Of a DNA stretch of 64,000 bases, positions 7,443 to 56,175 are shown in pieces. The DNA is from Polyangiales bacterium. Its GTDB lineage: Bacteria; Myxococcota_A; Polyangia; Polyangiales; Ga0077539. How positions within the stretch are numbered: the first letter of the stretch is position 1; every line of letters begins with the position of its first letter. The notes below the pieces were generated by a model. The model made no database searches. It was not told where the DNA came from and was given only the letters and a program-made list of their open reading frames with translations. The stretch is from contig JBGARZ010000001.1 in NCBI GenBank assembly GCA_044229975.1, positions 832,001-896,000 of the forward strand. The letters are read 5' to 3'. The position numbers and the translations under genes are program-made.

Positions 7443-7673
7443 GTGCTGCTCCGACGCTGCGTGCTGTTGCTGGCGCTTGCCTCCGCCGCGTGTGTGTCCG
7501 CCCCCGAGGCGACGCGCGCGGGCGGCGAGGCGTGCCGAAGGGATGAGGACTGCAACGGGGGCGCGACCTGCGGGCGGCTCAAGCTCTGCGTGTTGAGCTA
7601 CTGCGCCGAGGACGAGGTGTTTCGGGTGTGCCCCGACGGGCGCTACCCCGACGCGGGCGTCGCGCGGGACTGA
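7443..7673 (+). CDS. small Cys-rich lipoprotein
   Basis: LALASAAC signal; CRRDEDC...C...C...C...C pattern. Confidence 0.65.
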   Translation: MLLRRCVLLLALASAACVSAPEATRAGGEACRRDEDCNGGATCGRLKLCVLSYCAEDEVFRVCPDGRYPDAGVARD

Positions 7674-7684
7674 GGCAGGGACTG

Positions 7685-9085
7685 ATGGTGTCGGCAACGA
7701 AGAGGGTCACCCCGGGCGAGGCGTCGAGGCTCGGGGTCTACTACCGGTCGGTGAGCGTGGAGAACGTGCGTTGCTTCGCCGACGCGCAGACGCTCCCCCT
7801 CGCTGACAACGACGGGAAGCCGTACCACTGGACATTGCTGCTCGGAGAGAACGGGACGGGGAAGACGACGCTGCTGCATGCGCTGGCTGCGTTGAGCTGG
7901 CGTGAGCGGCGACCGGACAACCCGAGCACCCCAACGGACCATCCGAGGTTCCCCAGACCGATGGATGAGTGGGCGCAACTCAACTCCCCGTTTGATCCGC
8001 AGTCGTGGACACATCTGCGCTGTTCCAGTGTTGTGTCGCGCGGCTTGAAGTCCCGCGTCCTCCACGATCTCGAAGTCCGGTTTGGGCTACAGGGGAAGAA
8101 CTTCAAGGGGGGAAGCTCGGGCACTATCGGGGATGGAAGGACCGCGGAGGTCCTGTGCGCCTACGGACCCATGCGGCGCTCGATCGACGCGCGGCTCGGC
8201 GCGTCGGACGCCCGCAAGGACGAGGTGATCGACTTTCTCGAAGGGAAGGTGACGAGCCTCGACGTTGAGGAGTGGTTCCTTCAGCGTGACTATCTGGCCT
8301 CCAGCGAGGCGACAGAGCGCTCCGCCCGCGACCAGGCGCGGCGCTGGTTCGCCGTCGCGAAGGAGACGGTGCTGTCGATCCTGCCAGGAGTCACCGACCT
8401 CGTCCCTCGCTCCACCGGCGGCCCGTCCGGGCAGATCCGTCTCTACGCAGTCACCGCCCACGGAACCGTTCCCTTCCGTGAGCTCGGCTTCGGCATGCAG
8501 TCGACGCTCGCGTGGGTGATCGACCTCGCGGTTCGGATGATGACCGCCTACCCCGAAAGCACCGACCCGCTGAGCGAGCCCGCGGTCTGCCTCGTCGACG
8601 AGATCGACCTCCATCTTCATCCGCGGTGGCAGCGCGAGCTGCTCCAGAAGCTCTCGGCGCGCTTCCCGAACGTGCAGTTCGTCGCCACGGCGCACAGCCC
8701 GCTCATCGTGCAGGCCGCGCCCGAGGCCAACGTGGTCGTGCTCCGCCGCGTGGGCGAGCGGGTGGTCATCGATCGGGCGCCAGAGTCTGTGCGCCATTGG
8801 CGGGTCGATCAGATCCTGACCAGCGACCTCTTCGGTCTCCCCAGCGCCCGACCGGCGGAGCTCGACGCGCTCATCGCCGAGCGCGAACACCTTCTCGCGA
8901 AGAGCGAACCGACCGTGACGGAGATCGCGCGCCTGAAGGCGATTCGCTCGGACATCGGCGCGCACCCGGCGGGCGAGTCTCCGACCGTGCTCGAAGCCGA
9001 AGAACTCCTGTTGGGCCTCACCCGCGCGAGGACGGAGATCGTACTGAAGAACGGCGGCGCGAACGGGAAGAGGAGGAAGGCGTGA
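7685..9085 (+). CDS. ABC/AAA_21-type ATPase, PtuA-like
   Basis: ENVRCF, Walker A GENGTGKTT, signature ELGFGMQS, Walker B LVDEIDLHLHPRWQR, ATAHSP. Confidence 0.88.
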   Translation: MVSATKRVTPGEASRLGVYYRSVSVENVRCFADAQTLPLADNDGKPYHWTLLLGENGTGKTTLLHALAALSWRERRPDNPSTPTDHPRFPRPMDEWAQLNSPFDPQSWTHLRCSSVVSRGLKSRVLHDLEVRFGLQGKNFKGGSSGTIGDGRTAEVLCAYGPMRRSIDARLGASDARKDEVIDFLEGKVTSLDVEEWFLQRDYLASSEATERSARDQARRWFAVAKETVLSILPGVTDLVPRSTGGPSGQIRLYAVTAHGTVPFRELGFGMQSTLAWVIDLAVRMMTAYPESTDPLSEPAVCLVDEIDLHLHPRWQRELLQKLSARFPNVQFVATAHSPLIVQAAPEANVVVLRRVGERVVIDRAPESVRHWRVDQILTSDLFGLPSARPAELDALIAEREHLLAKSEPTVTEIARLKAIRSDIGAHPAGESPTVLEAEELLLGLTRARTEIVLKNGGANGKRRKA

Positions 9086-9912: not shown

Positions 9913-10434
9913 ATGAGCTACGTGATGGTCGACGTCGAGTCCGACGGCCCGGTGCTGGGGCTGTACTCCATGGTCTCCTTCGGCGCGGTGGTGGTCACTC
10001 CCGCGCTCGACCGAACCTTCTACGGTCGCCTGCGCCCCGTCAGCGAGCGATGGATTCCCGAGGCCCTCGCGGTGAGCGGCCACAGCCGCGACGAGACGCT
10101 CACCTTCGACGACCCCGCGGAGGTGATGGCCCGCTTCGCCGCGTGGGGCGCCGCGGAGTGCGGTCGTCGGCCCCTCTTCATCTCGGACAACAACGGCTTC
10201 GACAGGGGCTTCATCAACTACTACTTCCACCGCTACGGCAGCGGAAACCCCTTCGGCCACAGCTCGCAAAACCTCGGCTCGCTCTACAAGGGCCTCGCGA
10301 AGGACACCTTCGTGAATTTCAAGCACCTCCGACAGACCGCGCACACCCACCACCCGGTGGACGACGCGCGGGGCAACGCCGAGGCGCTCCTGCGGATGAA
10401 GACCGAGCTCGGGCTGAAGATCTCCCTCGACTGA
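9913..10434 (+). CDS. DEDDh 3'-5' exonuclease/exoribonuclease
   Basis: VMVDVESDGP (Exo I), NNGFD (Exo II), HHPVDDA (Exo III). Confidence 0.85.
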   Translation: MSYVMVDVESDGPVLGLYSMVSFGAVVVTPALDRTFYGRLRPVSERWIPEALAVSGHSRDETLTFDDPAEVMARFAAWGAAECGRRPLFISDNNGFDRGFINYYFHRYGSGNPFGHSSQNLGSLYKGLAKDTFVNFKHLRQTAHTHHPVDDARGNAEALLRMKTELGLKISLD

Positions 10435-10438
10435 AGCG

Positions 10439-11941
10439 CTACCAGCACGCGCAACAACGTGAGCCGTCGGTGCTGCCAGGGTTGGCGCACCAGCCCCCCG
10501 CGCGACCCGCCGAGACGCACGCCGCGTGGCAGTCGGGCGCCGTCCCGATGCAGCGCTCGCAGCCCTCTGGCGCACACGCGCAGCAACGCGATCCGTCGGC
10601 GCTGCCGGGCTCGCCGCAGCTCCCGCCGGTGGGGCCGATGGCCGACTGACACGCCGCCGCGCACGACAGGCCCGGCGCCACGCAGGCGGTGCATCCGCCG
10701 CCCACCGCGGGCGCCCTCTCGGCGATCGCGGCGCCGATGCGGTTGCGGTCCCAGCTCACCACCGAGGCGCCGCCGAACCACACCGCGCGGGGAGTGCCAT
10801 CGACCACCTGGAGGTGCGGCGTCACCTGGCCGAAGCGGTCGTACGACTGGCCGCTCAACCCGAAGAGCAGGCCGCGGTCGACCCAACACAGACCATCGGG
10901 ACTCGTCGACCAGAACGTCCCCGCGCCGCTCTCGCGCAGCATCACCCAGACGCCGCCGACGCGCTGCACGTCGACCGCGCCCGCGTCGAGCACGAGGGGG
11001 TTGCGCGGGTGGCGCGTGAAGGTGCGTCCGTCGGTGCTGGTCGCGAGCCCCACGTGGCGTCTCCCTCGCGCGGTGCCGTCGTAGAACATCCACCAGGTGG
11101 TTCCGTCGAAATGGACGCTGGGGCGGCCGACCTTCTCGTCGTCCCAGGAGCCCGCGGGGCCCGGACCGAGCACCTCGCCCACGCGGGTAAACCCGGTGAG
11201 CGCGTCGGACTGCGCGAGCCAGATGCGGTCGTTTTCACCAGTGGGCGCGTCCGTATAGAACATCGACCAGCGACCCCCCGCGCGCACCACGCTGGGGTCG
11301 TTGACGTGGTTGGATTCGCCGCGGTCGAGCACGGGGAGCGGCGACGCGTCGGAGGGCCACTTGCGCCACGAGGCGCCGTCGCGAGACGTGGCGACGTAGA
11401 TGCGATCGTGGCCGTCGGCGCCCTGCGCGCCGTACCACATGGCCCAACCGCCATCGATGGGTTGGAGGTCGGGCGCGTAGACGTTGTCCTGCCCCTGGAG
11501 CGCGACGGTGGATGTGGCGACGAGGAGGGGGTTGGCGACTGGGAGGTTCCAGCGGGCGGGCCAGGCGGAGGGGAGCTGGGTGCAGCCCGCATCGACCACC
11601 GGAGGGACGTCGGGAGCGAGCGGGACATCGATGGACGGTGGGACGTCGCGAATGACGGCAACGTCAACGGCAGCGGGCACGTCGCGGGCAGACGGGACGT
11701 CGATGGAAGGCGGGACGTCGCGAGCCGCCGGAACATCGATGGCGGGCGCGACGTCGACGGAAGGGACGTCACGCACGGAGGCGTCGATGGAGGGGACGTC
11801 GTCGAGCGGGTTCTTCGCGACGTCGTCCTCGATCGGGAGGTCTTCCTTCGCGGGCACGTCGGACGTGACGGTCTGCGTCGCGCAGGCGGTGAGCGCGCAC
11901 CATGACCATGCGAGGAGGCTTCGGCGGAGAGGTCCAGACAT
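10439..11941 (-). CDS. lipoprotein with 5-bladed beta-propeller glycoside hydrolase-like domain (GH43/32/130-like) and Cys-rich C-terminus
   Basis: ALTAC lipobox, DVP-repeat linker, blade repeats NVYAPD / HVNDPSV / KVGRPSV with WxMxY and ATSxDG. Confidence 0.75.
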   Translation of the reverse strand: MSGPLRRSLLAWSWCALTACATQTVTSDVPAKEDLPIEDDVAKNPLDDVPSIDASVRDVPSVDVAPAIDVPAARDVPPSIDVPSARDVPAAVDVAVIRDVPPSIDVPLAPDVPPVVDAGCTQLPSAWPARWNLPVANPLLVATSTVALQGQDNVYAPDLQPIDGGWAMWYGAQGADGHDRIYVATSRDGASWRKWPSDASPLPVLDRGESNHVNDPSVVRAGGRWSMFYTDAPTGENDRIWLAQSDALTGFTRVGEVLGPGPAGSWDDEKVGRPSVHFDGTTWWMFYDGTARGRRHVGLATSTDGRTFTRHPRNPLVLDAGAVDVQRVGGVWVMLRESGAGTFWSTSPDGLCWVDRGLLFGLSGQSYDRFGQVTPHLQVVDGTPRAVWFGGASVVSWDRNRIGAAIAERAPAVGGGCTACVAPGLSCAAACQSAIGPTGGSCGEPGSADGSRCCACAPEGCERCIGTAPDCHAACVSAGRAGGWCANPGSTDGSRCCACW

Positions 11942-16107: not shown

Positions 16108-16929
16108 CTACTCCGGAGGCAGTCGGTAGATCGTGAACGCGAGCGAGATCGTGGCGCGCGTCGTCTCCGGCTCGACGCGAAACACCGCGCGCCGCAGCAG
16201 CGTGGTCACGCATGTCGTGACCTCGGCATCGGCGAGCGAGCCCCCGGTGCGAGCGACTGAAGCGGGCCGATGGAGCGGTTCGCCCGGCTCGAAGTTCAGC
16301 GTGACGACGAGCGTCCCCTGGAACCGCGGTCGCTGATCGAGGCGCGCTTCGTAGCAGGTGCGCAGCTCGTTCTCGCGCCGCACCACGCTCTCGCGCAGGT
16401 CGGACACCGACGCTGCCGCGTCGGAGGTGAGCGCGGTGATCGTGACCACACCGGTGAGCGTGGGACGCGTCGGCGTCTCCCTGTCGGCGCGCGGCTGCCC
16501 CAACGGCGGCCGAGGAAACGCCCCGCCCGAGAGATAGACCCACCGAGCGCGCATGGTCGTCGGGCCGACGCCACGCGCGGTAGGAAACGTGAGCGTTCGA
16601 TGACGAGCGAGCAGGCACGCCGTGGTCGCCGCGGGGAATCCGGTGCCCGAGACGACACGCGCGACGCGCACGCGACCATGGTCGCCGACCTCCATGCGAA
16701 TGGTCGCCTCAGCGCCCTCGCGGACTCCCCGGAACGAGCACGACCGCAGTGCCGCGCGCTCCGCTTCGAGCACGGCGGACACACCCCGGGCGTGCACCGG
16801 GCCGTCGACCTCGATGGTCGCGAGTCGCAGCTCGACGGGCTGAGCGACGCGCGGCTGCGCCGAGGCCGCAGGCGCGAAGGCCAGGGTGAGCGCGGCAGCA
16901 CGGGCGTGACGTGAGGAGACAAAGCTCAC
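16108..16929 (-). CDS. secreted protein with two AgmX/PglI C-terminal (TonB-C-like) domains (start approximate)
   Basis: ELRTCYEARLDQRPRFQGTLVV...CV and ALRSC...TACLL. Confidence 0.75.
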   Translation of the reverse strand: MSFVSSRHARAAALTLAFAPAASAQPRVAQPVELRLATIEVDGPVHARGVSAVLEAERAALRSCSFRGVREGAEATIRMEVGDHGRVRVARVVSGTGFPAATTACLLARHRTLTFPTARGVGPTTMRARWVYLSGGAFPRPPLGQPRADRETPTRPTLTGVVTITALTSDAAASVSDLRESVVRRENELRTCYEARLDQRPRFQGTLVVTLNFEPGEPLHRPASVARTGGSLADAEVTTCVTTLLRRAVFRVEPETTRATISLAFTIYRLPPE

Positions 16930-17102
16930 CGGCACCACACGCCACGCGGCCCATCGCACGAGCTCTCCATGCGGCGACGGTACCATCGCCAATCGTCGGT
17001 CCATCCATCGGGCAATGGTCTTCGCGCCTGTCCCGGTGCGTCCGTTGGCAGCGGAGTACACGATCCGCTATGGATGCGTCCCTCATCAGGCGAAGGCGAT
17101 CC

Positions 17103-18323
17103 ATGAACACCACCGAGAGAACAGAAGCCCGCATCGTCGAGACCCACCACGCCCTGGTCGTGGCCTCCGAGCTGGCGGACAAAGTCGCGATCAAGGACTT
17201 CTTCGGGTCGGTGGTCACGGCCGACGAGCTCTCTTCGGGTTCGCACGACCTCTCCGGGAAGACCGTCTACCTCTGTGGCGACCTCTCCCGGATCAGCCCC
17301 GTCAACCTCGCAGCCGCCGAGCGGGTATGGGTCATCAAAGAACTCTCGCACGGCTTCGGCGATGACCTGCCATGGCCCGTTGTCGGAATAGGACAGGTCC
17401 CCATCAGCGTGCACGGCGTCGGCGTGTACTACCGGCGCTTCTTCGAGGTGGGCACCGACTACTTCGCGCAGATCTGCGCGGAGCACGCCTTCCAGTCCCT
17501 CACGGAGTCCAACAAGCCGGGGACGGCCCATCGCACGGGGATCTACCTGACCCCCGTCGAGCAGCACGGTGAAGAGCTGCACTTTCGACTACTGCGGTGC
17601 TCGACCAACCTCTCGGGCCCCACCGAGACCTTTCGGGCGAACGACCGGCGCATCGTCGATGCCCTCAACCGTGAAGCGGCTGTCCTCTTCGAGAACCACG
17701 CGCCCCTCAATCACGTGCTCGCACAGGTCTATCGCAACACCCCCGCCGAGGCGTCACAGAAGCAGTCCAAGGCGAAGATCTCGGCACACGCCGACAAGAC
17801 CAAGGACATGCCCGCCAACGGCATCATGGCCTTTTGCACCTTCTACGATGGACTCGACAAGGTGCGTCCCTTGAAGGGAGACGCCTTCGACCATGGCCAC
17901 CGAGACGTCAGCGGCCTGACCCGACTGCGCTTTCGCTTGAAGGAGTCGGTCGTGGGGCGCGCGGGCGCTCTTCCGCTGGAGTTCACCCTGACCTTGTATC
18001 CCGACTCGGTGTTCTTCATGCCGCTGTCGACCAACCGGTTGTATACGCACGAGATCGTGTCGTCGGTGCTGGATGCCGCGCTGCTGCCGACCCGGCTCGG
18101 GTACGTGGTGCGGTGTTCGAGCACCGAGGCGGTTCACCGGAATGGCCGCACCTTCCTCAAGGCGGACGATACCCTGGTGGAGCTGGAGCCGCCGACGCCC
18201 GAAGGAATGAGCGATCTCCGCAAGCTGTATGCAGAAGAAAACAGGTCGCAGGCGTTTATCGACTACGGCGGACGCTTTCTCTTCAGCATGAACCAGGGGG
18301 ACTACGTTGCCCCAAGGACCTGA
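17103..18323 (+). CDS. putative 2OG-Fe(II) dioxygenase-like protein (divergent AlkB type)
   Basis: NHVLAQVY, ISAHADKT (HxD), YTHEI, RLGYVVRCS. Confidence 0.65.
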   Translation: MNTTERTEARIVETHHALVVASELADKVAIKDFFGSVVTADELSSGSHDLSGKTVYLCGDLSRISPVNLAAAERVWVIKELSHGFGDDLPWPVVGIGQVPISVHGVGVYYRRFFEVGTDYFAQICAEHAFQSLTESNKPGTAHRTGIYLTPVEQHGEELHFRLLRCSTNLSGPTETFRANDRRIVDALNREAAVLFENHAPLNHVLAQVYRNTPAEASQKQSKAKISAHADKTKDMPANGIMAFCTFYDGLDKVRPLKGDAFDHGHRDVSGLTRLRFRLKESVVGRAGALPLEFTLTLYPDSVFFMPLSTNRLYTHEIVSSVLDAALLPTRLGYVVRCSSTEAVHRNGRTFLKADDTLVELEPPTPEGMSDLRKLYAEENRSQAFIDYGGRFLFSMNQGDYVAPRT

Positions 18324-19083
18324 CGGAGCGGACGAGTTTTGCGCCTTCGCTCTTCCCCTCAGGGACGGTCTCTTCGAGGAGCTGCTCGCCTCGGCTCGAC
18401 TCGAAACCGTGGGCAAGGGCCGCTTGGGAGGCGTGCTGACGAAGACCGATGAGACGCTCGGCGCACCCATCGTCCGCACGACCACCCGATACAGCCTCGC
18501 GGCGCAGTGCTTCCGGTCGGTCCATGACGAGCTGTCGCGAGAGATCCAGCGATGCGCGTCGCTCCCGGTCGCCTTCAACAACACCCTGATCGAGAAGTAC
18601 ACCGACGCCTACACGACCATGGGCAGCCACTCCGATCAGGCGCTCGATCTGGCCGACGACTCGTTCATCGCCGTGTTCTCTTGTTACGAACATCCCGGGT
18701 CGGCGGGCGCGCCGAGAAGGCTGATTGTCGAGTCGAAGGATGCCAGCGGCGGCGAGTTCGAGGTTCCATTGACGCACAACACCGCGGTGGTCTTCTCCGT
18801 CGGCACCAATCGGCGGTTCAGGCACAAGATCGTGCTCGCGAAGTCCGCTGGGACGCCCGAAAACCCATGGTTGGGCCTCACCTTTCGGACATCGAAGACC
18901 TTCGTGCGGCTTCGCGGCGAGCACGTCTGCTTCTCTGACGACACCCGCCTGACGCTGGCCAACGACGAACAACGGCAGGAGTTCTACCGACTGCGGCGTC
19001 GAGAGAACAACGAGACGGATTTCACCTATCCACGCATCGCATACACCGTCAGCGAGAGCGACCTGCTGCCACCCCTCCCCTGA
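18307..19083 (+). CDS. AlkB-family 2OG-Fe(II) dioxygenase
   Basis: FNNTLIEKY, MGSHSDQ (HxD), FRHKI, LGLTFRTS. Confidence 0.8.
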   Translation: MPQGPDGADEFCAFALPLRDGLFEELLASARLETVGKGRLGGVLTKTDETLGAPIVRTTTRYSLAAQCFRSVHDELSREIQRCASLPVAFNNTLIEKYTDAYTTMGSHSDQALDLADDSFIAVFSCYEHPGSAGAPRRLIVESKDASGGEFEVPLTHNTAVVFSVGTNRRFRHKIVLAKSAGTPENPWLGLTFRTSKTFVRLRGEHVCFSDDTRLTLANDEQRQEFYRLRRRENNETDFTYPRIAYTVSESDLLPPLP

Positions 19084-20216: not shown

Positions 20217-21890
20217 ATGCCCACCCCGATGCTGCCGAACGTGCTGCTTCGTCCTACCGTCGCGACCCTCACCGAGCTCCGCGCGAGCGGTCCTGCGGCG
20301 GAGTCGATCGCGTCCCTGGTGGTCGACGCCGACGTCGCGCCCGACGCGTGCGGGCTGCCGCGCTCGGTGGCGTTGGAGGCGTTCTGGCCGCTGGTGGTGG
20401 CCGAGGAGGGCGACGTCGCGCGCATCGTCGCGTCGCGCGCCGTGATGGTGCGGCGGGCCGATGGGGATGGTGTTCCGGTCGGGCTGCGGGCGTACCTCGT
20501 GAGCGGCGAGGCGGTGCGGGTGCACCCGCGGGTCGCGGCGGTGATCGCGGACGGTCGCGAGACACACGACGTCGCGGTGCGCGGCTTGTGGTCGGACGCG
20601 GCGGTGGCCGACCGCGCGGCGATGGCACCATGGCGGGCGCCCACCGACGGAGCGCCGACGATCAGCGCAGGGGCGCGGCTGGGCCTGTGGGAGCTGACGC
20701 GCGACGGAGCAGTCGACGACGCGCGGGTCTACGCGAGCGACGACGAGCTCATGGCCGCGTGGGAGAGCGGGCTCGTCGCGCACGACACGCTGGTGCGCGC
20801 TCGCATCGATGGGCGTCGTGGCGTGACCACGGCGGGGCGGGTGTGGTTGTGGCGCGCGCTGCCTGCGGGCGTGCGATTCGCGACGGTCGATCGGGCCATC
20901 GACGCCGTGGCGCTGACGGAGGTGATCGCCGCGTTGTGCGACGGGCTCGACGCCGAGGCGCGGTGGCGGCGACGGGCGGCGCTCGACGACGCGGGTTGGC
21001 GCTGGCTGGCGCGCAGCGGGTTCTCGGTGGGCGTCGACGACCTGCGGGCGAGCGACGGGCGGGACGCGGCGATGGCGGAGACGACGGAGCGTGTGCGAGG
21101 GGTCGAGCAGGCGTTTGTCGACGAGCTCATCACCGACGGTGAGCGGTACAACAAGGTCATCGACGTGTGGTCGGGGATGGCAGCGCGGTGCGAGCGCGCG
21201 TACGCCGACGTGCGCGGCGACGGCGTGATGTCCTCGTGGCGACGCGCCGGGGTGGTGCCCGGAGCCCAGGACGCGCGACGTTTGCTGGACCACTACGGAT
21301 CGGTCACGAAACCCTCACGGGAGCCGTATGAGCGACCGGTGTTCGGGTCGCCAGCGCGGGGATTCGACGCACACGATATGGCCCTCGTCGCGACCACGGA
21401 GCGAGCGGAGACCGTGCGGGCGGCGGCGCGGCTGGACGACACGCGGAAGGTGGTTCGGGCCCTGGCGCGCAGCCTCGCGACGCAGCGGGTGACGGTCGAC
21501 GACTGCGGGACGACGCGCGGCGCGCTGGTGTGTCCGTGGACCCAGGAGGAGCGCGATCGCATCGGGACGAGCCGTCCGCCCGAGGGCCGATGGACGGCGG
21601 GGCGCGTGCTGGCGGAGGACGTTCGGTGGGGCGACGGCGTGCTCATCGCGGCGGCCGGGACGATGCTCGACGCCAGGGCACTGCTGCTCGTGGGCAACGC
21701 CCGCATCGACTTCGTGCGCGTGCGCTCGCCGCGCACCTGCGAGGCATCGGGAGGCGTGTGCGCGCGGTGCTGGGGACACGACGAGACGGGCGCCTTTCCC
21801 ACGGTGGGCGAGGCCATCGGCGCGAAGGCGCTGCTCACGCTGCGGCGCACGCTCGCGAAGGCGAAGGCCGTCACCTTCCACATCTGCTGA
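20217..21890 (+). CDS. catalytically inactive paralogue of the RNA polymerase beta' central region
   Basis: Collinear motifs CGLPRSVALEAFWP, VHPRV, LGLWELTRD, TTAGR, ARSGFSVGVDDL, ITDGERYNKVIDVWS, DDCGT, GRVLAEDV, VRSPRTC..GVCARCWG, GEAIG..TFHI; NADFDGD is absent. Confidence 0.85.
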   Translation: MPTPMLPNVLLRPTVATLTELRASGPAAESIASLVVDADVAPDACGLPRSVALEAFWPLVVAEEGDVARIVASRAVMVRRADGDGVPVGLRAYLVSGEAVRVHPRVAAVIADGRETHDVAVRGLWSDAAVADRAAMAPWRAPTDGAPTISAGARLGLWELTRDGAVDDARVYASDDELMAAWESGLVAHDTLVRARIDGRRGVTTAGRVWLWRALPAGVRFATVDRAIDAVALTEVIAALCDGLDAEARWRRRAALDDAGWRWLARSGFSVGVDDLRASDGRDAAMAETTERVRGVEQAFVDELITDGERYNKVIDVWSGMAARCERAYADVRGDGVMSSWRRAGVVPGAQDARRLLDHYGSVTKPSREPYERPVFGSPARGFDAHDMALVATTERAETVRAAARLDDTRKVVRALARSLATQRVTVDDCGTTRGALVCPWTQEERDRIGTSRPPEGRWTAGRVLAEDVRWGDGVLIAAAGTMLDARALLLVGNARIDFVRVRSPRTCEASGGVCARCWGHDETGAFPTVGEAIGAKALLTLRRTLAKAKAVTFHIC

Positions 21891-21910
21891 CGACGAGAGG
21901 AGCACGAGCG

Positions 21911-22621
21911 ATGGAACACCAGACGCAGTCTGACGGGAGGGTCCGGTTTCGCGGCGTCGTGGCCGAAGAGCAGATCGACGAGGTCACGAGCCTCTCGTGG
22001 TCGAAGGCGGCGACCGATGGCTACATCGAGATCGTCGGAGCCGACTGGCGGGTCCTGCAACGGGTCGCGGTGCGAACGGGTGACCGGATCTTCGTCGAGG
22101 ACGGGGCCAAGGTCGCCGCGGGGGCACGGATCGCCTACTACAGCCATGAGCAGTACCGCGACCGCCCCTTCGCCGATCGGCCCAGCGGCGCGGCCCGGCT
22201 GGCGGATCTGCTACGGGCGCATCACCCGGATCGCGCGGCGGTGCTCACGCCCATCGCCGGGACGGCGAAGCTGGATACCGTGGGCGCCGACGTGCGCGTG
22301 CGCGTGGAGGCCGACGACGGCGCGTCGTGGCAGCGGGTGGTGGGCAGGCGTCACTCCTTCTGGCTGCGGGACGGCGATCAGCTCGACGTCGGTGACGTGC
22401 TCACCGATGGAGAGCGCGACCACCACGAGCTCCTCGCGCTGTGGGGGCGCGAGCGCTTCGAGGCGCACCTCTTCGAGGAGATTGACCAGGTCTTCACGGC
22501 CGCGCGGCTCGCCGTCGCGCCCAACGTGCTCGACCTCGTCACGCGCGAGGCCGTCGTCGACACGCCCGACGGGCCGCGGCTACGCCCGCTGCGGGAGTTT
22601 CCCGACCGCAGTGAGCGGTAG
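21911..22621 (+). CDS. paralogue of the RNA polymerase beta' SI3/jaw region (continues the upstream gene)
   Basis: GDRIFVEDGAKVAAGARIA (sandwich-barrel hybrid motif), SGAARLADLLRAHHP (~GGLPRVADLFEARRP), DGDQLDVGDVLTDGERDHHELL, LFEEIDQVF; own GAGGAG RBS. Confidence 0.8.
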   Translation: MEHQTQSDGRVRFRGVVAEEQIDEVTSLSWSKAATDGYIEIVGADWRVLQRVAVRTGDRIFVEDGAKVAAGARIAYYSHEQYRDRPFADRPSGAARLADLLRAHHPDRAAVLTPIAGTAKLDTVGADVRVRVEADDGASWQRVVGRRHSFWLRDGDQLDVGDVLTDGERDHHELLALWGRERFEAHLFEEIDQVFTAARLAVAPNVLDLVTREAVVDTPDGPRLRPLREFPDRSER

Positions 22622-39469: not shown

Positions 39470-41066
<1,597 letters not shown>

Positions 41067-41070
<4 letters not shown>

Positions 41071-44000
41071 TCGCGAACGGGCACAGCCCGCTCGACGTCG
41101 CGAGGATCATCGACGGCGCGCGGATCATCGTGGTCGGGGGAACGGGCTTCCTCGGCAAGGTCTGGCTCTCGCTGCTGCTCTGCCAGTACCCCAACGTCGG
41201 CAAGATCTTCCTCGTGGTGCGCTCCAAGGGATCGCAGGACTCCGAGGCCCGCTTCTGGACCGACATCGCCCCGAGCGAGCCCTTCAAGCCGCTGCACGCG
41301 CGGCACCCCGGCGACGAGTTCGAAGCCTTCCTGCGCGACAAGATCCACGTCGTCGACGCGGACGTCTCCAAGCCCCTCTGCGGCTTCTCCAACGACCTCC
41401 GCAAGGAGATCGAAGGAACCATCGACGCCCTGGTCAACGTCGCGGGCGTGGTGGACTTCAACCCGCCGCTCGACGAGGCGCTGCTCACCAACGCCGCGGG
41501 CATGCAGAACCTCGTGGTGCTCGCCAAGGCGCTCGGCGACGTGCCGGTGCTCCACACCAGCACCACCTACGTCGCGGGCTATCGCAGCGGGCGCGTCGAG
41601 GAGGTCGATCCGCGCGACGATCCGTTCCCCTACTTCAAGGACATGCCCGACGCGCCGTGGGATCCGCACCGCGAGATCTCCGAGGGGCTGTCGCTCGCGG
41701 CGAGCGTGACGAAGCACGCCGACGACGCCAACCGCATCGCGCAGTACGAGCGCGACGCGAAGGCGAACCTCGAAGCGAAGAAGGAGCCCACGACGGGCGC
41801 GATCTTCGCGGCCGAGGTGAAGAAGGTTCGCGAGAAATGGCTGTCCGCCGAGGGCGAGCGCGTCGGCATGGAGCGCGCGAAGTTCTGGGGCTGGACCAAC
41901 ACGTACACGTACACGAAGAGCCTCGGTGAGCAGGTGCTCGCGGGCTCCGGGTTGCGCTTCACGCTCGTGCGCCCGGCGGTGATCGAGTCCTCCGTCTCCT
42001 TCCCCTCCCCGGGATGGAACGAGGGCATCAACACCATGGCCCCGATCATGTTCATGTTCATGGCGGGCCACATGCGGGTGCCCGCGCACTCGACCGCCGG
42101 TCTCGACGTGATCCCCGTCGACATGGTGTCGGGCGGCATGATCCTGGCGCTCGCGGCGCTGCTCGAGGACACGCACGCGCCGGTCTACCACCTCGGTTCG
42201 AGCCACAAGAACCCCGTCTCCATCCACCGCATCATCGAGCTGTCGGGGCTCTACAAGCGGAAGTTCTACCAGCGCACGGGCAAGGGAAACCCCTTCACCA
42301 ACTTCGTGCAGGCGCACTGGGAGCCCACGCCCGTCTCGAAGGAGATCTTCTTCAGCCAGGGCGCGCCCGCCATCGCCCGCGCCGCGAAGACGCTCTCGCA
42401 GCTCGCACGCAAGGCGGCCGTCGGTCCCGCGGCGATCTTGATGGCCCCGACATCGCGCGCGCTGAGTTCGTACAGCGACCTCGCGAAGCGCAATGGCGAG
42501 ATCTTCGGCCTCTTCGTCCCCTTCATGGCGGAGACCGACTACCAGTTCGTCACCGACGCGGCGGCCGGGCTGATGGCGCGCGCGACGGAGGCCGACCGCA
42601 TCGCGTGCAACTGGGCGCCGGAGTCCATCGACTGGCGGCACTACCTGATGGAGGTCCATTACCCGGGCCTCGACCGCTGGGTGATGCCGCTCATCGAAGA
42701 GCGCCTCAACCGCCCGACCAAGCCGCTGCGCGCGTACGTCTCGCTGCTCGATGTTCTGGACGAGGCAGCCGAGCAGCACGAGCACCGCCCGGCGCTGCTG
42801 CGACTCGAGTCCGAGGGGCTCGCGCGACTCTCCTTCACGACCTGGAAGCAGCGCTCCGACGCGACCGCCGCTCGGCTCGTCGCGATGGGCGTGAAGCCCG
42901 GTGACCGCGTGATGATCTGCGCGGGCAACCACCCGGCGTGGCCCATCGCGTACTTCGGCATCCTGCGCGCGGGCGCCGTGGCCGTGCCCGCCGACGCCGC
43001 GCTCGAAGTCTTCGCGCTGGAGAACGTCCTGCGTGCGTCGCGCTCCGTCGTCGTGATCTGCGACGCCAAGGTACGCGAACGCCTGTCGACCATCGAGGGC
43101 CTCACGGTCACCGCTGTCGACCTGCACGACGTCACCGCCGAGGACGAGTCGCTCGTCGCGCCGGAGCTGCCGCGCCCGACGGCCGACACGCTCGCGAGCG
43201 TGATCTACACCTCGGGCACCACCGGGACGCCGAAGGGCGTGATGCTCTCGCACGGCAACTTCTGCCGGATGATCGCGTCGCTCGCGCCGGTCTTCCCCCT
43301 CGGCGAGGGCGATCGGGTCCTGTCGGTCCTGCCGCTGCACCACACCTTCGAGTTCACGTGCGGGATGCTGCTGCCGCTCTCGCGCGGGGCGTCGATGGTC
43401 TACCTCGACGAACTCACCGGCGAGCGCGTTGTACAGGCGCTCCGTGATGCGAAGGTCTCCGCGATGGTGGGCGTCCCGGCGCTGTGGCAACTGCTGGAGC
43501 GGCGCATCACCCAACAGGTGAAGGACTACGGCCCCGCCGCCAACACCGTCTTCGACATGGCCCTCGCGCTCAACCGAACGCTCGGCGAGAAGGCAGGCAT
43601 CAACGTCGGCCAGGTGCTCTTCGGCACCGTCCACGCGCGATTGGGCGGGCGGCTGCGCTTCCTCATCTCGGGCGGCGCGGCGCTGCCCAAGGAGACCGCG
43701 GAGCTGTTTCGCGGCATCGGGTTGCCGCTCGCGGAGGGCTACGGGCTCACCGAGGCGTCTCCCGTGCTCACGGTCGCCAAGGCGAGCTCGTCGGCCAAGC
43801 CCGGCAGCGTCGGTGCGCCGGTGCCCGGCGTCGAGGTGAAGATCCTCAACCCCGACCCGTCGGGTGTGGGCGAGGTCGCGGCGCGCGGACCCAACGTGAT
43901 GGTCGGCTACGCGGATGACCCCGAGGCGACAGCCGCGGTGCTGTCGGCCGACGGCTGGCTCCGCACGGGCGACCTTGGGGCCATCGACAAGAAGGGTCGG

Positions 44001-45734
44001 CTCACCCTCGTCGGTCGCAGCAAGGACGTGGTCGTCGCGGCCAACGGCGAGAACATCTACCCCGACGACGTCGAGCGCGCGCTGGGCGAAGTGTCACTGG
44101 TGAAGGAGCTCGTGGTGCTCGGCATCGCCGACGCCCGCGGCGGAGAGCGCCTCGCGCTGCTCGCGGTGCCCGACCTCGACGACGTGCCCGCGGAGGACCG
44201 CCCGGCCCGTCGCGACAAGGCGCTGCGCAACCTCAAGCACGCGGTGCGCGATCTTCCTCCGGCGTGGCAGCCCGCGGTGGTGCTCCCCTACGACGCAACG
44301 CTCCCACGTACCGCGACGCGCAAGGTGAAGCGCGCCGAGGTGCGCCCGGTGGTCGAGCGCCTCGTGGCGGCGACCACGCCCGTGCGGCCCGGGACGAGCG
44401 GTCGGTCGACACCGGAGAACCCGGTGCGACAGGCCATCGCGGCGATCGCGCGGCGGCCCATCGAGGACGTCACCGAGAAGAGCCGGCTGCGGGCCGACCT
44501 CGGGTACGACTCGCTGATGGCGATGGAGCTCGCGGTGGCGCTGGAGGCCATCCGGGGGCGACAGGTTCCGCAGGAGATGGTGAGCGTCGAGACGGTGGGC
44601 GAACTGGAGCGGGCGCTGGGCTTGGACAGCGAGCTTGCGCGGCAGCACGACGACGAGCGCGCGGTCGCGCCGAAGGACGACGACGACGAGATCAGGCTCG
44701 ACGTCCCGGCGCCGCTCAAGGACGCCGCCAAGTCGGCGCTCGCGGTGTTGCAGCGCGAGTTCTACGCGTCGGTGATGAAGCCCAGGGTGACGGGGCGCGC
44801 GTACATCCCGCACAACCGCAACGCGCTCGTGGTGGCCAACCACACGAGCCACCTGGACATGGGCTTCGTGAAGTACGCCCTCGGCAGCTACGGGAAGAAC
44901 CTCGTAGCCCTCGCGGCGCGCGACTACTTCTTCGACACGCCGCTCAAGCGCGCGCTGATGGAGAACCTCACCAACGTCGCCTCCTTCGACCGCGACGCGG
45001 GCCTGCACGAGACACTCAACGAGGTCGGCGAGCTGCTCCGCGCGGGCAAGACGGTGCTCATCTTCCCGGAGGGCACGCGCAGTCCCGATGGGCGCATCCA
45101 GAAGTTCCTCGGGGCGGTGGGCTTCCTCACGCTGCACTACGAGGTCGACGTGCTCCCGGTGTGGGTGGGCGGAACCTTCGAGTCGCTCCCCAAGACGGGC
45201 CTCGTCCCCAAGCGGCGGGACATCACGGCGCGCATCGGTCCGCCGCTGGAGCTCGATCACATCCGTCGGCTTACGCGCGGGATGAAGCCCGTGGAGTCGG
45301 CGCGCACGGTGGCGCGCCTCGCGCAACGCGCGGTGGAGTCGCTGCGCGACGGGACGGTGCTCGACCTGTCGACGCTCTCCGACGCGAAGGAGGACACGGC
45401 GGCGCGCAAGCATCCGCTGGTGGCGCTCTTCGACGAGCTGCCCGGGCGCTTCCTCAAGGGGAAGGTCGACAACCCCGTGAGCTTCTACTTCACCCTGGGC
45501 GCCGAGCCCGAGGCCAAGTGGACGGTGCAGGTCACGCCGACCGAGTGCCTCGTGGTCAACGGGAAGTCCGACACCGGCACCGCGGACTGCGTCCTCAAGA
45601 CGAGCGCCGAGCTGTTCACGCGCATCGTGCGCGAGGGCTACGAGCCGGGCGTGTCGGAGTTCATGTCGGGGCAGGTGAAGTCCAACGACGTGGGTCTCTT
45701 GCAGACCTTCACGCGCGCCTTCCACCTGGGTTGA
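41067..45734 (+). CDS. elbD: multifunctional ether-lipid biosynthesis enzyme: FAR-like reductase, acyl-CoA synthetase, ACP, acyltransferase, SCP2
   Basis: GGTGFLGK, NTYTYTK, YTSGTTGTPKG, GYGLTE, DLGYDSL (Ppant Ser), NHTSHLD and FPEGTRS, C-terminal SCP2-like (FMSGQVK). Confidence 0.85.
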
Positions 45735-51716: not shown

Positions 51717-52463
51717 ATGCCAGCGAAGACCCCGAAGCCCTCCGCGAGCGACTCTGTCCGCCAACAGTGGCTGGCTCGTGTCGAGGCCGAGTACCGGTCG
51801 GCCGTGCTCACCCAGGAGCTCACCCTCTGGCTGATGCAGGCCGGCGCCTCGCCCGACCTCCTGCGCGACGGCCTCCGCATCGTCGAGGACGAGCTCACCC
51901 ACGCCGAGCTCTCCATGGCCGCCTACCAGGCCGCCGGCGGGAGCTCGCTCCCCACCCTCGCGCGCGAGACCCTCGGCCTCACGAGGCACCACGGCGAGCC
52001 GCTCGAACACGACATCCTCCGCGTCGCCGGGGACGGCTTCTGCCTGGGCGAAACCGTCGCCGTCCCGCTCTTCAAGAACCTCCGCGACGGCTGCACCGTC
52101 CCCGTCGCCCGCAAGGCCCTCGACCGCATCCTGCGCGACGAGGTGCGCCACCGCGACTTCGGCTGGACCCTCCTCGAATGGCTCCTCGAAGGACCGCTCG
52201 GCGCCAACCTCCGTGGACTTGTCGGGCGTGAGCTGCCCGACTGGTTCGAGCGCATCCGGCGCAGCTACGCGCCGGCGTACGCAGGGCAGTTCACCACCAT
52301 CTCGGAGGACGATCAGCAGTGGGGGCTCATGGCACCCGCCCGCTACGCAGCGGTCGTCGAACGGAGTTGGGAGCGCGACTGGAAGCCTCGCTTCAGCGAG
52401 CTCGGCATCGACGCCGTCCCCGCGTGGGAGACGGCCACGGCCCGCACTACGACAGCGCGATGA
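51717..52463 (+). CDS. ferritin-like (diiron) domain protein
   Basis: EAEYRS, DELTH, LGETVA, DEVRHRDFGW. Confidence 0.85.
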   Translation: MPAKTPKPSASDSVRQQWLARVEAEYRSAVLTQELTLWLMQAGASPDLLRDGLRIVEDELTHAELSMAAYQAAGGSSLPTLARETLGLTRHHGEPLEHDILRVAGDGFCLGETVAVPLFKNLRDGCTVPVARKALDRILRDEVRHRDFGWTLLEWLLEGPLGANLRGLVGRELPDWFERIRRSYAPAYAGQFTTISEDDQQWGLMAPARYAAVVERSWERDWKPRFSELGIDAVPAWETATARTTTAR

Positions 52464-52956
52464 CCACGCCCGCATCGGCGAGTGGGTGCACGGCGCAGTC
52501 GGTCGATGAGCCGTCCTCCCAGACCAGACAGGTGAAGTCGATGCGGTCGTCGAGGGCGATCATCGGGTGGTGCCACACACCCGGGCGGTAGCTCACGCCC
52601 GTGGCCCCAGCGACCACGAAGGCACGCAGCGTCGACAGGTCGGGCGCGTCGCCACCGAGCGCGACCACCGCGAGGTAGCGGCGGGCGTTCATGGGGATGA
52701 ACACCTGCGTCGACGCAGGGTGCTTCTCCAGCAGCGCCAACGGGAGTGGCCAGTCGAGGCGCGGGGCACAGCGGAAGCTGCACACGTTGAGCGTGGCTTC
52801 GGGGCGCAGCGAACGAACGTCGGTGAGGAAGTCGCGGCGGGCAGCGGTTCCCTGGTTGGCGGGCTTCGCGGCGACGTCGGCGCGCTCGGCGGAGATCACG
52901 TCGCCATAGGGCGCGTAGGCTTCCGACGAGAGCGCCTCGGCGACGACGATGGGCAC
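52447..52956 (-). CDS. allA: ureidoglycolate lyase
   Basis: LEKHPASTQVFIPM, GVSYRPGVWHHP. Confidence 0.9.
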   Translation of the reverse strand: MPIVVAEALSSEAYAPYGDVISAERADVAAKPANQGTAARRDFLTDVRSLRPEATLNVCSFRCAPRLDWPLPLALLEKHPASTQVFIPMNARRYLAVVALGGDAPDLSTLRAFVVAGATGVSYRPGVWHHPMIALDDRIDFTCLVWEDGSSTDCAVHPLADAGVVIALS

Positions 52957-52957
52957 G

Positions 52958-53302
52958 TCAGCTCCCGCGGTAGGTGCTGAGCCCGAAGGGGCTGAGCAGC
53001 AGCGGGACGTGGTGATGCTGGCTCGCGTCGCGCACGCGGAAGACGAGCACCGCCTCGGGGAAGAAGCCCTCCACGCCGATGGCGCCGAAGTACGCCTCGG
53101 TGTCGAAGGTGAGGCGATACACACCCTCGGAGAGCGGCGTGTTGGTGGGGACCAGCGTGCGGAGGCGGCCGTCGTCGTCGGTCTTGCCGTGACCGACGGG
53201 CGCCCAGGAGCCGTCGTCGCGGCGACGTTCGAGGAGGACGGGGACGCCCGTCGCAGGCTTGCCGCGCGCGGTGTCGAGGACGTGGGTGGTGATGCTGTTC
53301 AT
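52958..53302 (-). CDS. uraH: 5-hydroxyisourate hydrolase
   Basis: ITTHVLDTARGKPA, HVPLLLSPF, C-terminal YRGS. Confidence 0.95.
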   Translation of the reverse strand: MNSITTHVLDTARGKPATGVPVLLERRRDDGSWAPVGHGKTDDDGRLRTLVPTNTPLSEGVYRLTFDTEAYFGAIGVEGFFPEAVLVFRVRDASQHHHVPLLLSPFGLSTYRGS

Positions 53303-54813
53303 GGTTCGAGGAGCTTCTCCAGGCGCAGCCGGGTGATGCGGTGCTGCTCGGCCGCCGCGACGCGCAGCTCGGCCTCCGGGTCGTTGCCCATGCGCGCCTT
53401 CGCCAGCGCCAGCATCTCGTCGAGCGTGCGACCCGTCGCGCACACGATGTAGATGAACCCGAAGCGCGCCTCGTACGCCTTGTTGAGCTCGGCGAGCTCG
53501 GTGCGCAGCGCGTCGCTCGCGCCCGCGGTGCCCGACTGTTCGGAGGCCGACCAGCGCTTCGCCGTCGCGTCCTGACCCGCGGCGGCCTTCGTCTCGCCGA
53601 TGCGCGGGTGCGCGCGAAAGGCCTCGCGCCAGTCGTCGGGTGACGTCCACGACCACGTCGCGTCGGCGGCCTCGCGCAGCGCCTCCACCGACGCGTAGGG
53701 GCGGCCTTCGGCCATCCACTCGATCCAGCGCGACGAGCCGCAGCACGCACGCAGGGACGACTCGGCGATGGACGGCGTGAGCGTGTTGAAGCGCGTGAGA
53801 CCGAGGCCGAGGCGCTCGTCGGGGGAGAGCGTTCCGAAGGCGCGCAGGCGGCTGACACCGCCGTCGGGGAAGACCTCCAGGCGCAGGTGCGTCGCGGGGC
53901 CGTGGTCGACCAGAACGTCCTCGAACCAGTGGCGCGTGTCGGCCTGGAGCTTCGTGCGCGGGAGCAGCTCGCGCCACGCGGTCTCGTCGGCGAGGCGAGC
54001 TTCATCGGAGGCGTCGCAGACCAGCACGCGACACGTGTCTGGGTAGTTGCCCTTGAAGTGGTGCGTGTCGATGACGAGCCGCGTGAGCGTCGCGCGGGCG
54101 GCGAGCTTCACCAATGCCCAGTCGTGGTGCGGCCCGCGGCTGCGGCGGGTTTCCCAGCCGTCGCCCATGTTGAGCGCGCGGTCGGGCATGATCAGGTTGC
54201 GGCGCTCACCAAAGAACATGTCGCTGCACGTCACGACGTGCGCCCCGTTTTCGGCCGCCGCGAGGTCGACCTCGCCGCGCGCGTGACCCGTGCGACGCCA
54301 GTCGGGCACCGCCTCGCCGAAGACCCGCAGTCGCGCGACGCCGCCGTCGGGGAAGATGTTGAGCCGCACGTGCGTGAACGCGAAGGGGCTCTCCACCGCG
54401 AAGGGGTTCTTGGAGTCGCCGTTGAGCGCGGACTTCGGGAGGATCTCGATCCACTCGGTGGACGGATCGGTGAGGGTCTCGATGCGCGCGTCCGAGGGAA
54501 GGGCGCACGCCTCGATGGAGCACTGCGCCGGGTAGTTGCCCCGGAAGAACGCCGTGTCGACCACGACGCCGCGGATCACTCCCGGAACGCCCAGTCGGAC
54601 GATGGCCCAGTCGTGTCCTTCGACGCGCTTGCGGCGGCTCTCCCAGCCGTCCATCCACTTGCCGCGGTCGGTGTACTCGTGCGGGAGGAAGACCGCCTCG
54701 CCGGGCTTCAGGAGGTTCTCCTTCTCGGCGAAGAAGTCGTCGCTGGCGGCGATCACCGCGCCGCGCAGGCGCAGCGAGGCGAGGTCCATGAGTTCGGTGA
54801 AGGGTGTGGTCAT
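53299..54813 (-). CDS. alc: allantoicase fused to OHCU decarboxylase
   Basis: Two allantoicase repeats (MDGWESRR / GDGWETRR, PDGGVARLR), then CCGSSRW, AHPRIG, SEQSG, YEARFGFIYIVCATG. Confidence 0.92.
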   Translation of the reverse strand: MTTPFTELMDLASLRLRGAVIAASDDFFAEKENLLKPGEAVFLPHEYTDRGKWMDGWESRRKRVEGHDWAIVRLGVPGVIRGVVVDTAFFRGNYPAQCSIEACALPSDARIETLTDPSTEWIEILPKSALNGDSKNPFAVESPFAFTHVRLNIFPDGGVARLRVFGEAVPDWRRTGHARGEVDLAAAENGAHVVTCSDMFFGERRNLIMPDRALNMGDGWETRRSRGPHHDWALVKLAARATLTRLVIDTHHFKGNYPDTCRVLVCDASDEARLADETAWRELLPRTKLQADTRHWFEDVLVDHGPATHLRLEVFPDGGVSRLRAFGTLSPDERLGLGLTRFNTLTPSIAESSLRACCGSSRWIEWMAEGRPYASVEALREAADATWSWTSPDDWREAFRAHPRIGETKAAAGQDATAKRWSASEQSGTAGASDALRTELAELNKAYEARFGFIYIVCATGRTLDEMLALAKARMGNDPEAELRVAAAEQHRITRLRLEKLLEP

Positions 54814-56171: not shown

Positions 56172-56175
56172 GGGC

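Follow-up and report, generated by a model that had tools for sequence, protein, structure and literature searches.

The window analysed here is a stretch of 64,000 nucleotides from the genome of a Polyangiales bacterium (contig JBGARZ010000001.1, positions 832,001 to 896,000 of the forward strand), and positions given below without further label are those of the window. It carries two adjacent open reading frames (ORFs) on the plus strand, ORF A (20217-21890, 557 amino acids) and ORF B (21911-22621, 236 amino acids), which lie in different frames with 20 nucleotides between them. A preliminary description of this DNA had proposed that the two genes encode a catalytically dead paralogue of the RNA polymerase (RNAP) subunit beta'. 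The present analysis confirmed a dead, split RNAP beta' paralogue at this locus. The features of the pair are listed below; A3 denotes an alignment of 27 rows, comprising the window protein, its seven orthologues, seven more distant relatives and, from the same order, 12 canonical beta' sequences, one of them the genome's own.

20217-21890, plus strand: ORF A, the N-terminal chain of the pseudo-beta', corresponding to about residues 350-937 of E. coli beta' (phmmer, TIGR02386, Foldseek, VIA).
20340-20363, plus strand: PDACGLPR, ORF A residues 42-49, aligned with the canonical CGLPKK segment and invariant in the eight subfamily sequences.
20523-20579, plus strand: the dead active-site segment HPRVAAVIADGRETHDVAV, ORF A residues 103-121, which replaces the Mg-binding NADFDGDQMAV (A3).
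21129-21170, plus strand: ITDGERYNKVIDVW, ORF A residues 305-318, the stretch most like canonical beta' (A3).
21504-21770, plus strand: four cysteines, C430 (in DCGT), C508, C515 and C518, aligned with four canonical cysteines (A3, PDB alignments).
21873-21890, plus strand: the end of ORF A, TFHIC and a TGA stop, at the trigger-loop tip; this is the split site, and all seven orthologues end in TFHI(G)C.
21895-21902, plus strand: Shine-Dalgarno-like GAGAGGAG, 8 nucleotides ahead of the ATG of ORF B (from the sequence).
21911-22621, plus strand: ORF B, the C-terminal chain of the pseudo-beta', corresponding to about residues 948-1315 of E. coli beta' (phmmer, Foldseek, VIA).
21911-22153, plus strand: a sandwich-barrel hybrid motif like SI3, the trigger-loop insertion, ORF B residues 1-81 (VIA).
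22172-22555, plus strand: the second trigger helix, the jaw barrel and the subsequent helices, ORF B residues 88-215 (phmmer with Thermus beta', VIA).
22541-22621, plus strand: the C-terminal tail of ORF B, TREAVVDTPDGPRLRPLREFPDRSER, the most conserved B block among the orthologues (alignment A2, block identity 0.71).

The longest possible reading of ORF A begins with a TTG codon at 20103. The methionine at 20217 was preferred as the start, because it is the N-terminus in six of the seven ORF A orthologues (the seventh, P0005, is N-terminally shorter). The DNA of the region has a GC content of about 72%, and long spurious ORFs of 300-580 amino acids are present in all frames across the A/B region. 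Since such ORFs are frequent in DNA of this composition, an open frame alone is little proof of coding here. The argument of the preliminary description, that open frames speak for retention, is therefore weak taken alone, and the retention itself stands on other grounds, namely the ends of the genes, the GC content at third codon positions (GC3), the in-frame gaps and the ratio of non-synonymous to synonymous substitution rates (dN/dS). The GC content at codon positions 1, 2 and 3 is 0.75, 0.57 and 0.90 in ORF A and 0.78, 0.46 and 0.89 in ORF B, which resembles that of the neighbouring genes, and the high-GC3 phase moves from the A frame to the B frame between 21850 and 22000. This composition speaks for both ORFs being coding.

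The homology searches and the structural models showed that the two products follow beta' in order, as had been claimed. In a phmmer search against the PDB sequences, ORF A residues 91-556 aligned with E. coli beta' 438-937 (E 7.8e-35; best match overall, E 1.8e-36), and a separate weak and short match placed residues 40-62 on the CGLP segment (E. coli beta' 359-381). For ORF B, the aligned ranges were residues 61-213 on E. coli beta' 1108-1259 and residues 88-215 on Thermus beta' 1250-1376 (E 6e-11). Using tblastn, ORF A residues 34-556 were recovered in a single piece on canonical beta' genes from within the order (26-28% identity), with E values of about 1e-40 to 1e-44 at 19 loci of other genomes and about 1e-31 on the genome's own rpoC (two overlapping loci). 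The profile search for beta' domains gave a divided result. Pfam alone was marginal and below threshold (Rpb1_3, E 0.08; Rpb1_5, E 0.17), and the NCBIfam rpoC model TIGR02386 matched ORF A with E 1.8e-39 (135.3 bits) and ORF B with 36.9 bits, both scores lying below its cut-off of 963.5.

The AlphaFold2 (AF2) model of ORF A had a mean predicted local distance difference test score of 65.5 (mostly 80-96 for residues 150-550, below 50 for residues 1-147), and that of ORF B a mean of 87.6. The top Foldseek matches of both models were beta' chains (ORF A, to E. coli beta', E 2.5e-25; ORF B, E 1.7e-15). Superposition with VIA-align, a check put forward in the preliminary description, placed ORF A residues 122-555 on E. 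coli beta' 356-936 (Z 17-19.4, about 400 residues aligned) and ORF B residues 91-234 on Taq beta' 1253-1432 (1ynj_J, Z 14.4, root-mean-square deviation (rmsd) 3.3 Å, 143 residues aligned). ORF B residues 1-81 superposed on the trigger-loop insert of E. coli as determined by crystallography (4iqz_C, Z 12.8, rmsd 1.3 Å, 76 residues aligned; 2auk_B, Z 12.6, rmsd 1.4 Å). The beta'-homologous fold is present in the pore, funnel, cleft and jaw modules (Foldseek, VIA), and ORF A residues 1-147 are without a confident model. The look-alikes in the ESM Atlas were beta' fragments and phage Rpb1_5 clusters only (scores of the phage clusters 0.87-0.89, leads only).

The active site was compared in A3, where HPRVAAVIADGRETHDVAV aligned with HPLVC.AFNADFDGDQMAV of the 12 canonical beta' sequences. 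The canonical rows read ...HPLVC.AFNADFDGDQMAVHVPL..., and the window subfamily reads HPxVAAxxADGRExHDVAVRGLW. The Mg-binding NADFDGD is replaced by IADG-RETHD in the window protein, and no acidic residue is conserved among the eight subfamily sequences at the three Asp positions of the motif. About 14 residues directly upstream of the dead site (NRAPTLHRLGIQAF in the canonical rows) are deleted from the active-site barrel, and the segment from CGLP to the dead site is about 26 residues shorter than the canonical one. Since the Mg site is missing and the barrel is truncated, catalysis is excluded.

The consensus residues of the F-loop, the bridge helix and the first trigger helix are replaced as well. 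The N-terminal clamp, the zinc ribbon and the clamp helices are missing, ORF A starting at about residue 350 of beta', and so is the C-terminal region, ORF B ending at about E. coli residue 1315. In beta', the clamp, the zinc ribbon and the clamp helices are the parts that bind sigma and NusG. Because the clamp is absent, the functions that depend on it appear excluded. The loss of the Mg-binding motif, the degenerate bridge and trigger helices and the missing clamp/sigma part had all been read from the sequence beforehand, and A3 together with the alignment ranges upheld each of them.

Other parts of beta' are kept. The ITDGERYNKVIDVW stretch is found in distant family members too, yet it is variable within the window's own subfamily; the window protein retains ITDGERYNKV, and many unrelated metagenome contigs match the window DNA at 21126-21164 only. 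C515 is invariant, and C430, C508 and C518 are nearly invariant, over the 27 rows of A3. In canonical beta', the four cysteines with which they align bind the second zinc. The first trigger helix still ends in TFH, and A and B are separated at the trigger-loop tip, immediately before the inserted sandwich-barrel domain.

The assembly of the genome (10.0 Mb, 39 contigs) contains a single rpoB (one PF00562 match, on contig C27) and a single canonical rpoC (one PF04998 match) adjoining it. This rpoC carries an intact Mg motif, so that a separate canonical copy, which the preliminary description had set as a check, does exist. The A/B pair lies on contig C32, not next to rpoB, and a beta-like partner, that is, a second PF00562 match, was not found in the genome. 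The genome's canonical beta' (locus L060) has an insertion of about 45 residues at A3 columns 476-520, which is absent from the 11 other canonical rows and from the pseudo-beta'. The canonical rpoC frames are long throughout f1, the family of the window's genome (about 1540-1620 vs about 1390-1400 amino acids). ORF B matched canonical beta' of other families with E 1e-10 to 1e-13, vs 7.8e-4 for that of its own genome.

A second, compact beta'-like gene of 436 amino acids lies on contig C2 of the same genome (113123-114433, which is 10124-11434 of locus L045; TIGR02386, E 2.4e-23). Its single chain has the bridge helix, the zinc-site cysteines, the jaw and the C-terminal helices but no inserted barrel, and the gene is followed by an ORF of 142 amino acids and a PtuB-like HNH gene. 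These two form a cassette (L045:11431-12281 and loci L062-L073) of a 142-residue protein and a 141-residue HNH nuclease. Matches to the 142-residue gene occur in 12 further genomes of the order, with HNH matches beside it at 9 of the 12 loci, and the cassette looks like a small mobile or toxin-antitoxin-like module. A link between the HNH gene and beta'-like genes was considered and rejected, as a beta'-like gene lay within about 1.5 kb of the cassette in none of the 12 other genomes.

The search of 5.8 billion proteins with ORF A returned 11 sequences: ORF A itself, seven orthologues (543-564 amino acids, 65-89% identical), two distant proteins of about 720 amino acids and one beta' piece of 957 amino acids. 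The ORF B search returned eight, namely ORF B itself and seven orthologues (229-236 amino acids, 51-82% identical), all seven of which begin with MEH. Six of the seven B orthologues are on a contig of equal size to that of an A orthologue (38491, 11634, 43639, 4974, 16717 and 30656), and the equal-sized contigs are read as the same contig. Because these six thus appear to share a contig with an A orthologue, the two-gene layout is conserved, and the orthologous pairs that had been suggested as a check were thus found, six of them on matching contigs. Both genes, with precisely the same ends, are conserved in at least 7 other genomes or bins.

The gaps in the alignments of the A and B orthologues are in-frame only, and in that of ORF A they occupy 29 of the 566 columns, mostly N-terminal ones. 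The N-terminal 150 residues of ORF A, which AlphaFold models poorly, are as conserved as the core (71-81% vs 56-82% identity per block) and contain the invariant stretches PDACGLPR, DVAVRGLW and AAMAPWR. The subfamily has 13 invariant tryptophans of its own. Its least conserved blocks are A 251-400, with the rim-helix motif (305-318) and the segment aligned with the F-loop, and B 101-150, in the part aligned with the jaw. One orthologue bears the automatic JGI label 'DNA-directed RNA polymerase subunit beta''. The search for related loci with alignment A1 found nothing in metagenome contigs or genome contigs.

Non-canonical beta'-like frames of about 430-880 amino acids were found in at least 12 of the 30 other f1 genomes (31 with the window's own): G016, G092, G097, G102, G112, G125, G129, G133, G149, G153, G157 and G165. 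There are two loci each in the window's genome and in G092, and two further members occur in other families of the order (G155, G253). The distant members are about 30% identical to the window proteins. In G165, the A-like ORF (L035) ends with ...WTFHIC and the B-like ORF begins 10 nucleotides downstream; in G092, the A-like ORF (L036) ends with ...TLHIGC. As they stop at the same place in spite of this low identity to the window proteins, the split point is a shared one. Other members are fused, with 808 amino acids in G125 and G149, 796 in G092 and 715 in metagenome proteins, and the fused P0040 continues through ...TFHVCGL.... The break at the trigger-loop tip in some members and its absence from others imply that the hairpin tolerates a two-chain make-up. 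The distant family members are without the N-terminal part of ORF A. Among four distant metagenome proteins examined, P0011 alone, labelled 'hypothetical protein [Polyangiaceae bacterium]' in the database, reaches the active-site region, where it is without the Asp triad, and the other three start downstream.

With ORF B as the query, the canonical pattern of the second trigger helix was absent in 69 of the best 150 representatives at 50% identity (56 of these 69 are shorter than 450 amino acids), a count that takes in fragments and thus gives only a rough upper limit to family size. At E 1e-6, ORF B had matches in 294 of 401 genomes, nearly all in frames of about 1400 amino acids, and outside f1 this threshold does not separate paralogues from canonical beta'. 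Because canonical beta' matches too, the search gives no family count beyond f1. Taken as a whole, the family of conserved dead beta' cores, mostly in one family of large GC-rich genomes, is real and maintained, and no prior description of it was found. No description of a dead or truncated bacterial beta' paralogue family was found in the literature at abstract level or in Pfam, NCBIfam or PADLOC, which agrees with the preliminary statement that no such family was known.

Selection was examined through dN/dS, which gave an answer in two parts. The fused members of G125 and G149 are 94% identical without a gap over 808 codons, and their dN/dS is 0.19 (upstream neighbour, 0.18), as expected of a retained protein; the figures for the split members of G092 and G157, which are 58% (A-like) and 54% (B-like) identical, did not give the same support and are weighed below. 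Each of these split genes forms one tblastn piece with in-frame gaps only and no stop, at a dS of about 0.57, and because of the usual ratio of indels to substitutions such a pattern would not be expected of neutral decay. Near-strain contigs in the metagenome run X1 show 18 coding differences from the window, 10 of them at third codon positions; the 9 synonymous and 9 non-synonymous differences over 319 synonymous and 872 non-synonymous sites give a ratio of non-synonymous to synonymous polymorphism (pN/pS) of about 0.37, a weak figure from short contigs at a depth of 2-5. Because there are orthologues with the same ends, GC3 periodicity, gaps in frame only and these dN/dS values, the pair is maintained and not decaying.

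Upstream of the pair lies a divergent pirin gene (Pfam, E 5e-18), and downstream ORF C (176 amino acids, without a family match) followed by a carboxylesterase gene. With rpoB and rpoC on C27, the described position outside any rpoBC operon, between a pirin and a hypothetical gene, proved accurate. The remaining genes of the window are ordinary chromosomal ones. ORF C was considered as a conserved partner and rejected; it has two homologues only, on contigs other than those of the A/B orthologues, and occurs once in genus g1, without B alongside. At 12 loci of distant relatives, tblastn with a threshold of E 1e-3 found no match to the pirin, the esterase, ORF C, a 2-oxoglutarate (2OG) oxygenase or a 470-residue ORF. 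Nor did any Pfam family recur among 89 ORFs that neighbour the family genes at 9 of the 11 annotated loci; the other two, L037 and L039, are syntenic with L036 and L038 and were omitted. The neighbours of the distant relatives vary by locus and include patatin, reverse transcriptase, Ser/Thr kinase, glutaredoxin and sulfatase genes, among others. No defence gene, biosynthetic cluster, resistance gene, phage gene or RNAP-factor gene is consistently near the family loci. In PADLOC-DB 2.0, a library of systems described by 2023, no model at E 0.01 matched either of two fused relatives or the products of ORFs A, B and C. A promoter and terminator scan of the stretch found none and is uninformative for this organism.

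The pair is homologous to bacterial RpoC over about 800 residues (E. coli beta' about 350-1315) and has the same pore/funnel/cleft/jaw fold, the four aligned cysteines, one SI3-type barrel in the trigger loop and the trigger-loop TFH. It differs from RpoC in being only about 26-31% identical, in having no NADFDGD, no clamp, zinc ribbon or clamp helices and no C-terminal region, in consisting of two chains outside the rpoBC operon, and in its replaced bridge-helix and trigger-loop consensus. Among the features that mark RpoC, only the fold and the cysteine cluster were found in the pair; the Mg motif, a TIGR02386 score at the cut-off, full length and adjacency to rpoB were not. Cyanobacterial and plastid RpoC1 and RpoC2 and archaeal A' and A'' likewise form the largest subunit from two adjacent genes whose products reassemble, but their halves are catalytic and jointly full length. 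The cyanobacterial break corresponds to about ORF A residue 253 (the start of the rpoC2 model TIGR02388), whereas that of A/B is at the trigger-loop tip before the inserted barrel.

In some actinomycetes, second rpoB genes are extra full-length, active copies that serve self-resistance by replacing the sensitive target. Such copies resemble the A/B pair as paralogues of an essential, antibiotic-targeted enzyme alongside the housekeeping copy, but A/B cannot replace beta'. Non-canonical phage RNAPs retain the catalytic site and come with beta-like partners. The giant-phage RNAPs of the phiKZ type share with the pair highly diverged beta' fragments encoded as separate genes, whereas A/B is without the Asp triad, a beta-like partner and a phage context, and its sequence is much closer to bacterial beta'. 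The phage beta'-like sets are reported to form an RNA polymerase (PMC4666361). Bacterial pseudoenzymes are exemplified by the pseudokinases (PMC12599244). Like the A/B pair, pseudoenzymes keep the enzyme fold, have lost the catalytic residues and are encoded by a conserved gene. A pseudoenzyme derived from the catalytic subunit of a cellular RNAP was not found in the literature, as covered by listings and abstracts, subscription literature lying outside this scope.

In our judgement, A/B is probably a selected, protein-expressed pair that rebuilds the pore/funnel/cleft/jaw half of beta' and acts as a non-catalytic binding scaffold. The two chains together would re-form the funnel and rim of the secondary channel, the bridge/trigger region and the jaw, and the zinc-site cysteines would hold the fold. 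As the pair would be unable to make RNA, to hold the DNA-RNA hybrid or to bind sigma, a scaffold for binding suggests itself. Its most likely role would be to bind, away from the polymerase, either a protein or small molecule whose usual docking site is this face of beta' or a new lineage-specific partner. The rapid, lineage-specific evolution of the sequence, in which the frame is strictly preserved, would be in keeping with a changing partner, and so would the variable blocks A 251-400 and B 101-150. The strongly conserved N-terminal remnant could be a beta-facing or a new surface.

Several points weigh against this reading. The dN/dS figures come from pairs of distant family members, none of them from the window's own subfamily, and in the split pair of G092 and G157 they are 0.66 (A-like) and 0.72 (B-like), compared with 0.49 and 0.22 for two neighbouring genes; the dN of this pair is about three times that of the neighbour genes. 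Sequence constraint is thus loose, at least in the G092/G157 branch. Taken together with the results above, the frame and the ends are under selection and the sequence is loosely or diversely constrained. The pair was not found in any of the eight other genomes of the window's genus (completeness 64-94%), and because of this it is dispensable. In the search of sequencing runs, only DNA metagenome runs matched the stretch (best word share 0.25) and no RNA run did. A pairing of the chains like that in beta', by way of the two trigger-loop hairpin halves, would follow from homology only. No conserved partner was identified among the neighbours or beta-like genes examined. Finally, the ERYNK core of the rim-helix motif varies within the subfamily (ERFNR, ERYSK, ERSNK, EQYNK, EQGMK), which argues against a conserved docking site of the Gre/DksA type.

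The first alternative is a neofunctionalised scaffold with a role outside transcription, for which the beta' fold is just a stable frame. Nearly all residues that define beta' function are replaced, the 13 invariant tryptophans are found in this subfamily alone, ORF B has a conserved tail with which it ends ahead of the canonical C-terminal part, and there is no linkage to transcription genes. However, nothing points positively to another process, and the neighbours differ at every locus, so that we regard this alternative as rather unlikely.

A more specific version of the binding-scaffold reading makes the pair a decoy or sponge for a phage RNAP inhibitor, for an antibiotic or peptide directed at RNAP and produced by the cell itself or by competitors, or for a Gre/DksA-type factor, which would protect or tune the real polymerase. 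The retained parts do line the secondary channel and form the jaw, the distribution is patchy with several copies per genome (two loci each in the window's genome and G092), evolution is rapid with the frame kept, and the least conserved blocks are those aligned with the rim helix and F-loop (A 251-400) and with the jaw (B 101-150); the five Gre-family C-domain genes of the genome also suit it. On the other hand, neither A nor B nor the fused forms match a defence model, biosynthetic clusters and resistance or phage genes are not consistently near, the rim-helix tip motif is not conserved in the subfamily, and stoichiometric sequestration would require high expression. The decoy is therefore held to be doubtful. 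Equally tentative is its extension to the whole family, in which clamp-less beta' cores, split or fused, would be a stand-in for the secondary-channel/jaw face in large GC-rich, probably myxobacterial genomes and capture molecules aimed there.

The Gre-factor C-terminal domain (PF01272) occurs in five genes of the genome, all above the cut-off (contigs C38, C19, C2, C18 and C32), which amounts to an expansion of secondary-channel factors; the DksA-type zinc finger is single. The genome's GreA is encoded on C38, another contig than the A/B pair. A predicted complex of A (residues 148-557) and B with this GreA as the partner scored 0.01 and 0.00 (mark 0.32) and carries no weight either way. In G016, a beta'-like pair (L041, contig C20) and the GreA gene share a strand and are about 5.4 kb apart, separated by genes for a sulfatase and a RecG-like helicase; this proximity is probably a coincidence.

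It is improbable that A/B replaces beta' beside beta (and alpha) in an inactive particle that titrates beta and alpha or occupies DNA, in the manner of a dominant-negative assembly. The N-terminal remnant of the active-site domain, which faces beta in beta', is among the most conserved parts of ORF A, as such an assembly would have it. However, the clamp and the C-terminal region, which make much of the contact to beta, are absent, about 14 barrel residues are deleted and ORF A 1-147 is not folded by AF2. Moreover, the genome has one rpoB and no beta-like paralogue (PF00562), and the distant members are entirely without the N-terminal part.

A decaying remnant of an rpoC duplication, with frames open by chance in GC-rich DNA, would suit the frequent long spurious ORFs, the dN/dS of 0.66-0.72 in G092/G157 and the absence of the pair from the closest genomes, but it is hardly credible in view of the identical starts and stops in seven orthologues down to 65% (A) and 51% (B) identity, the in-frame gaps only, the dN/dS of 0.19 in the fused G125/G149 members, the GC3 of 0.9 with a GC content of 0.46-0.57 at second positions as in the neighbour genes, the ribosome-binding site and ATG exactly at the split, and the split point common to members about 30% identical; frame disruption, lost periodicity and non-conserved ends, the features of a pseudogene, were all absent from A and B.

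Few proteins are as conserved or as well studied as beta', which in bacteria is regarded as an essential enzyme subunit with a single gene copy. A selected paralogue without catalysis, DNA clamping or sigma binding but with the secondary-channel/jaw architecture would be a new kind of RNAP-related protein. If the favoured binding scaffold takes up RNAP regulators, inhibitors or phage proteins, it would provide a minimal and soluble natural model of this polymerase face and a new means of tuning or protecting transcription. If the stand-in reading were true, A/B would be the first pseudoenzyme derived from the catalytic subunit of a cellular RNAP to act as a target mimic.

Further genes of the window were noted in passing. 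Directly upstream of the pirin gene, at 16911-19083, the GC content is lower (0.63-0.64 vs about 0.72); here, the 470-residue ORF, which has no family match, overlaps the 2OG-Fe(II) oxygenase gene (PF13532, E 3.8e-8) by 17 nucleotides, and the two may have been acquired as a two-gene unit. At 7628-9085, the window encodes a PtuA-type ATPase of the Septu defence system (PADLOC, E 3.9e-120; Pfam AAA_21/AAA_15), and about 0.8 kb after it, at 9913-10434, there is a DEDDh exonuclease gene with the PADLOC label 'Effector' (E 1.4e-31). The multidomain protein of 1631 amino acids at 40839-45734 (NAD_binding_4, AMP-binding, PP-binding and acyltransferase domains), adjoining an epimerase gene, has an architecture reminiscent of the myxobacterial ether-lipid synthesis enzymes. 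The minus strand carries a purine-catabolism cluster at 52447-57432, which encodes a ureidoglycolate lyase, an allantoicase-OHCU decarboxylase fusion, an amidohydrolase and a protein with a urate oxidase N-terminal domain.

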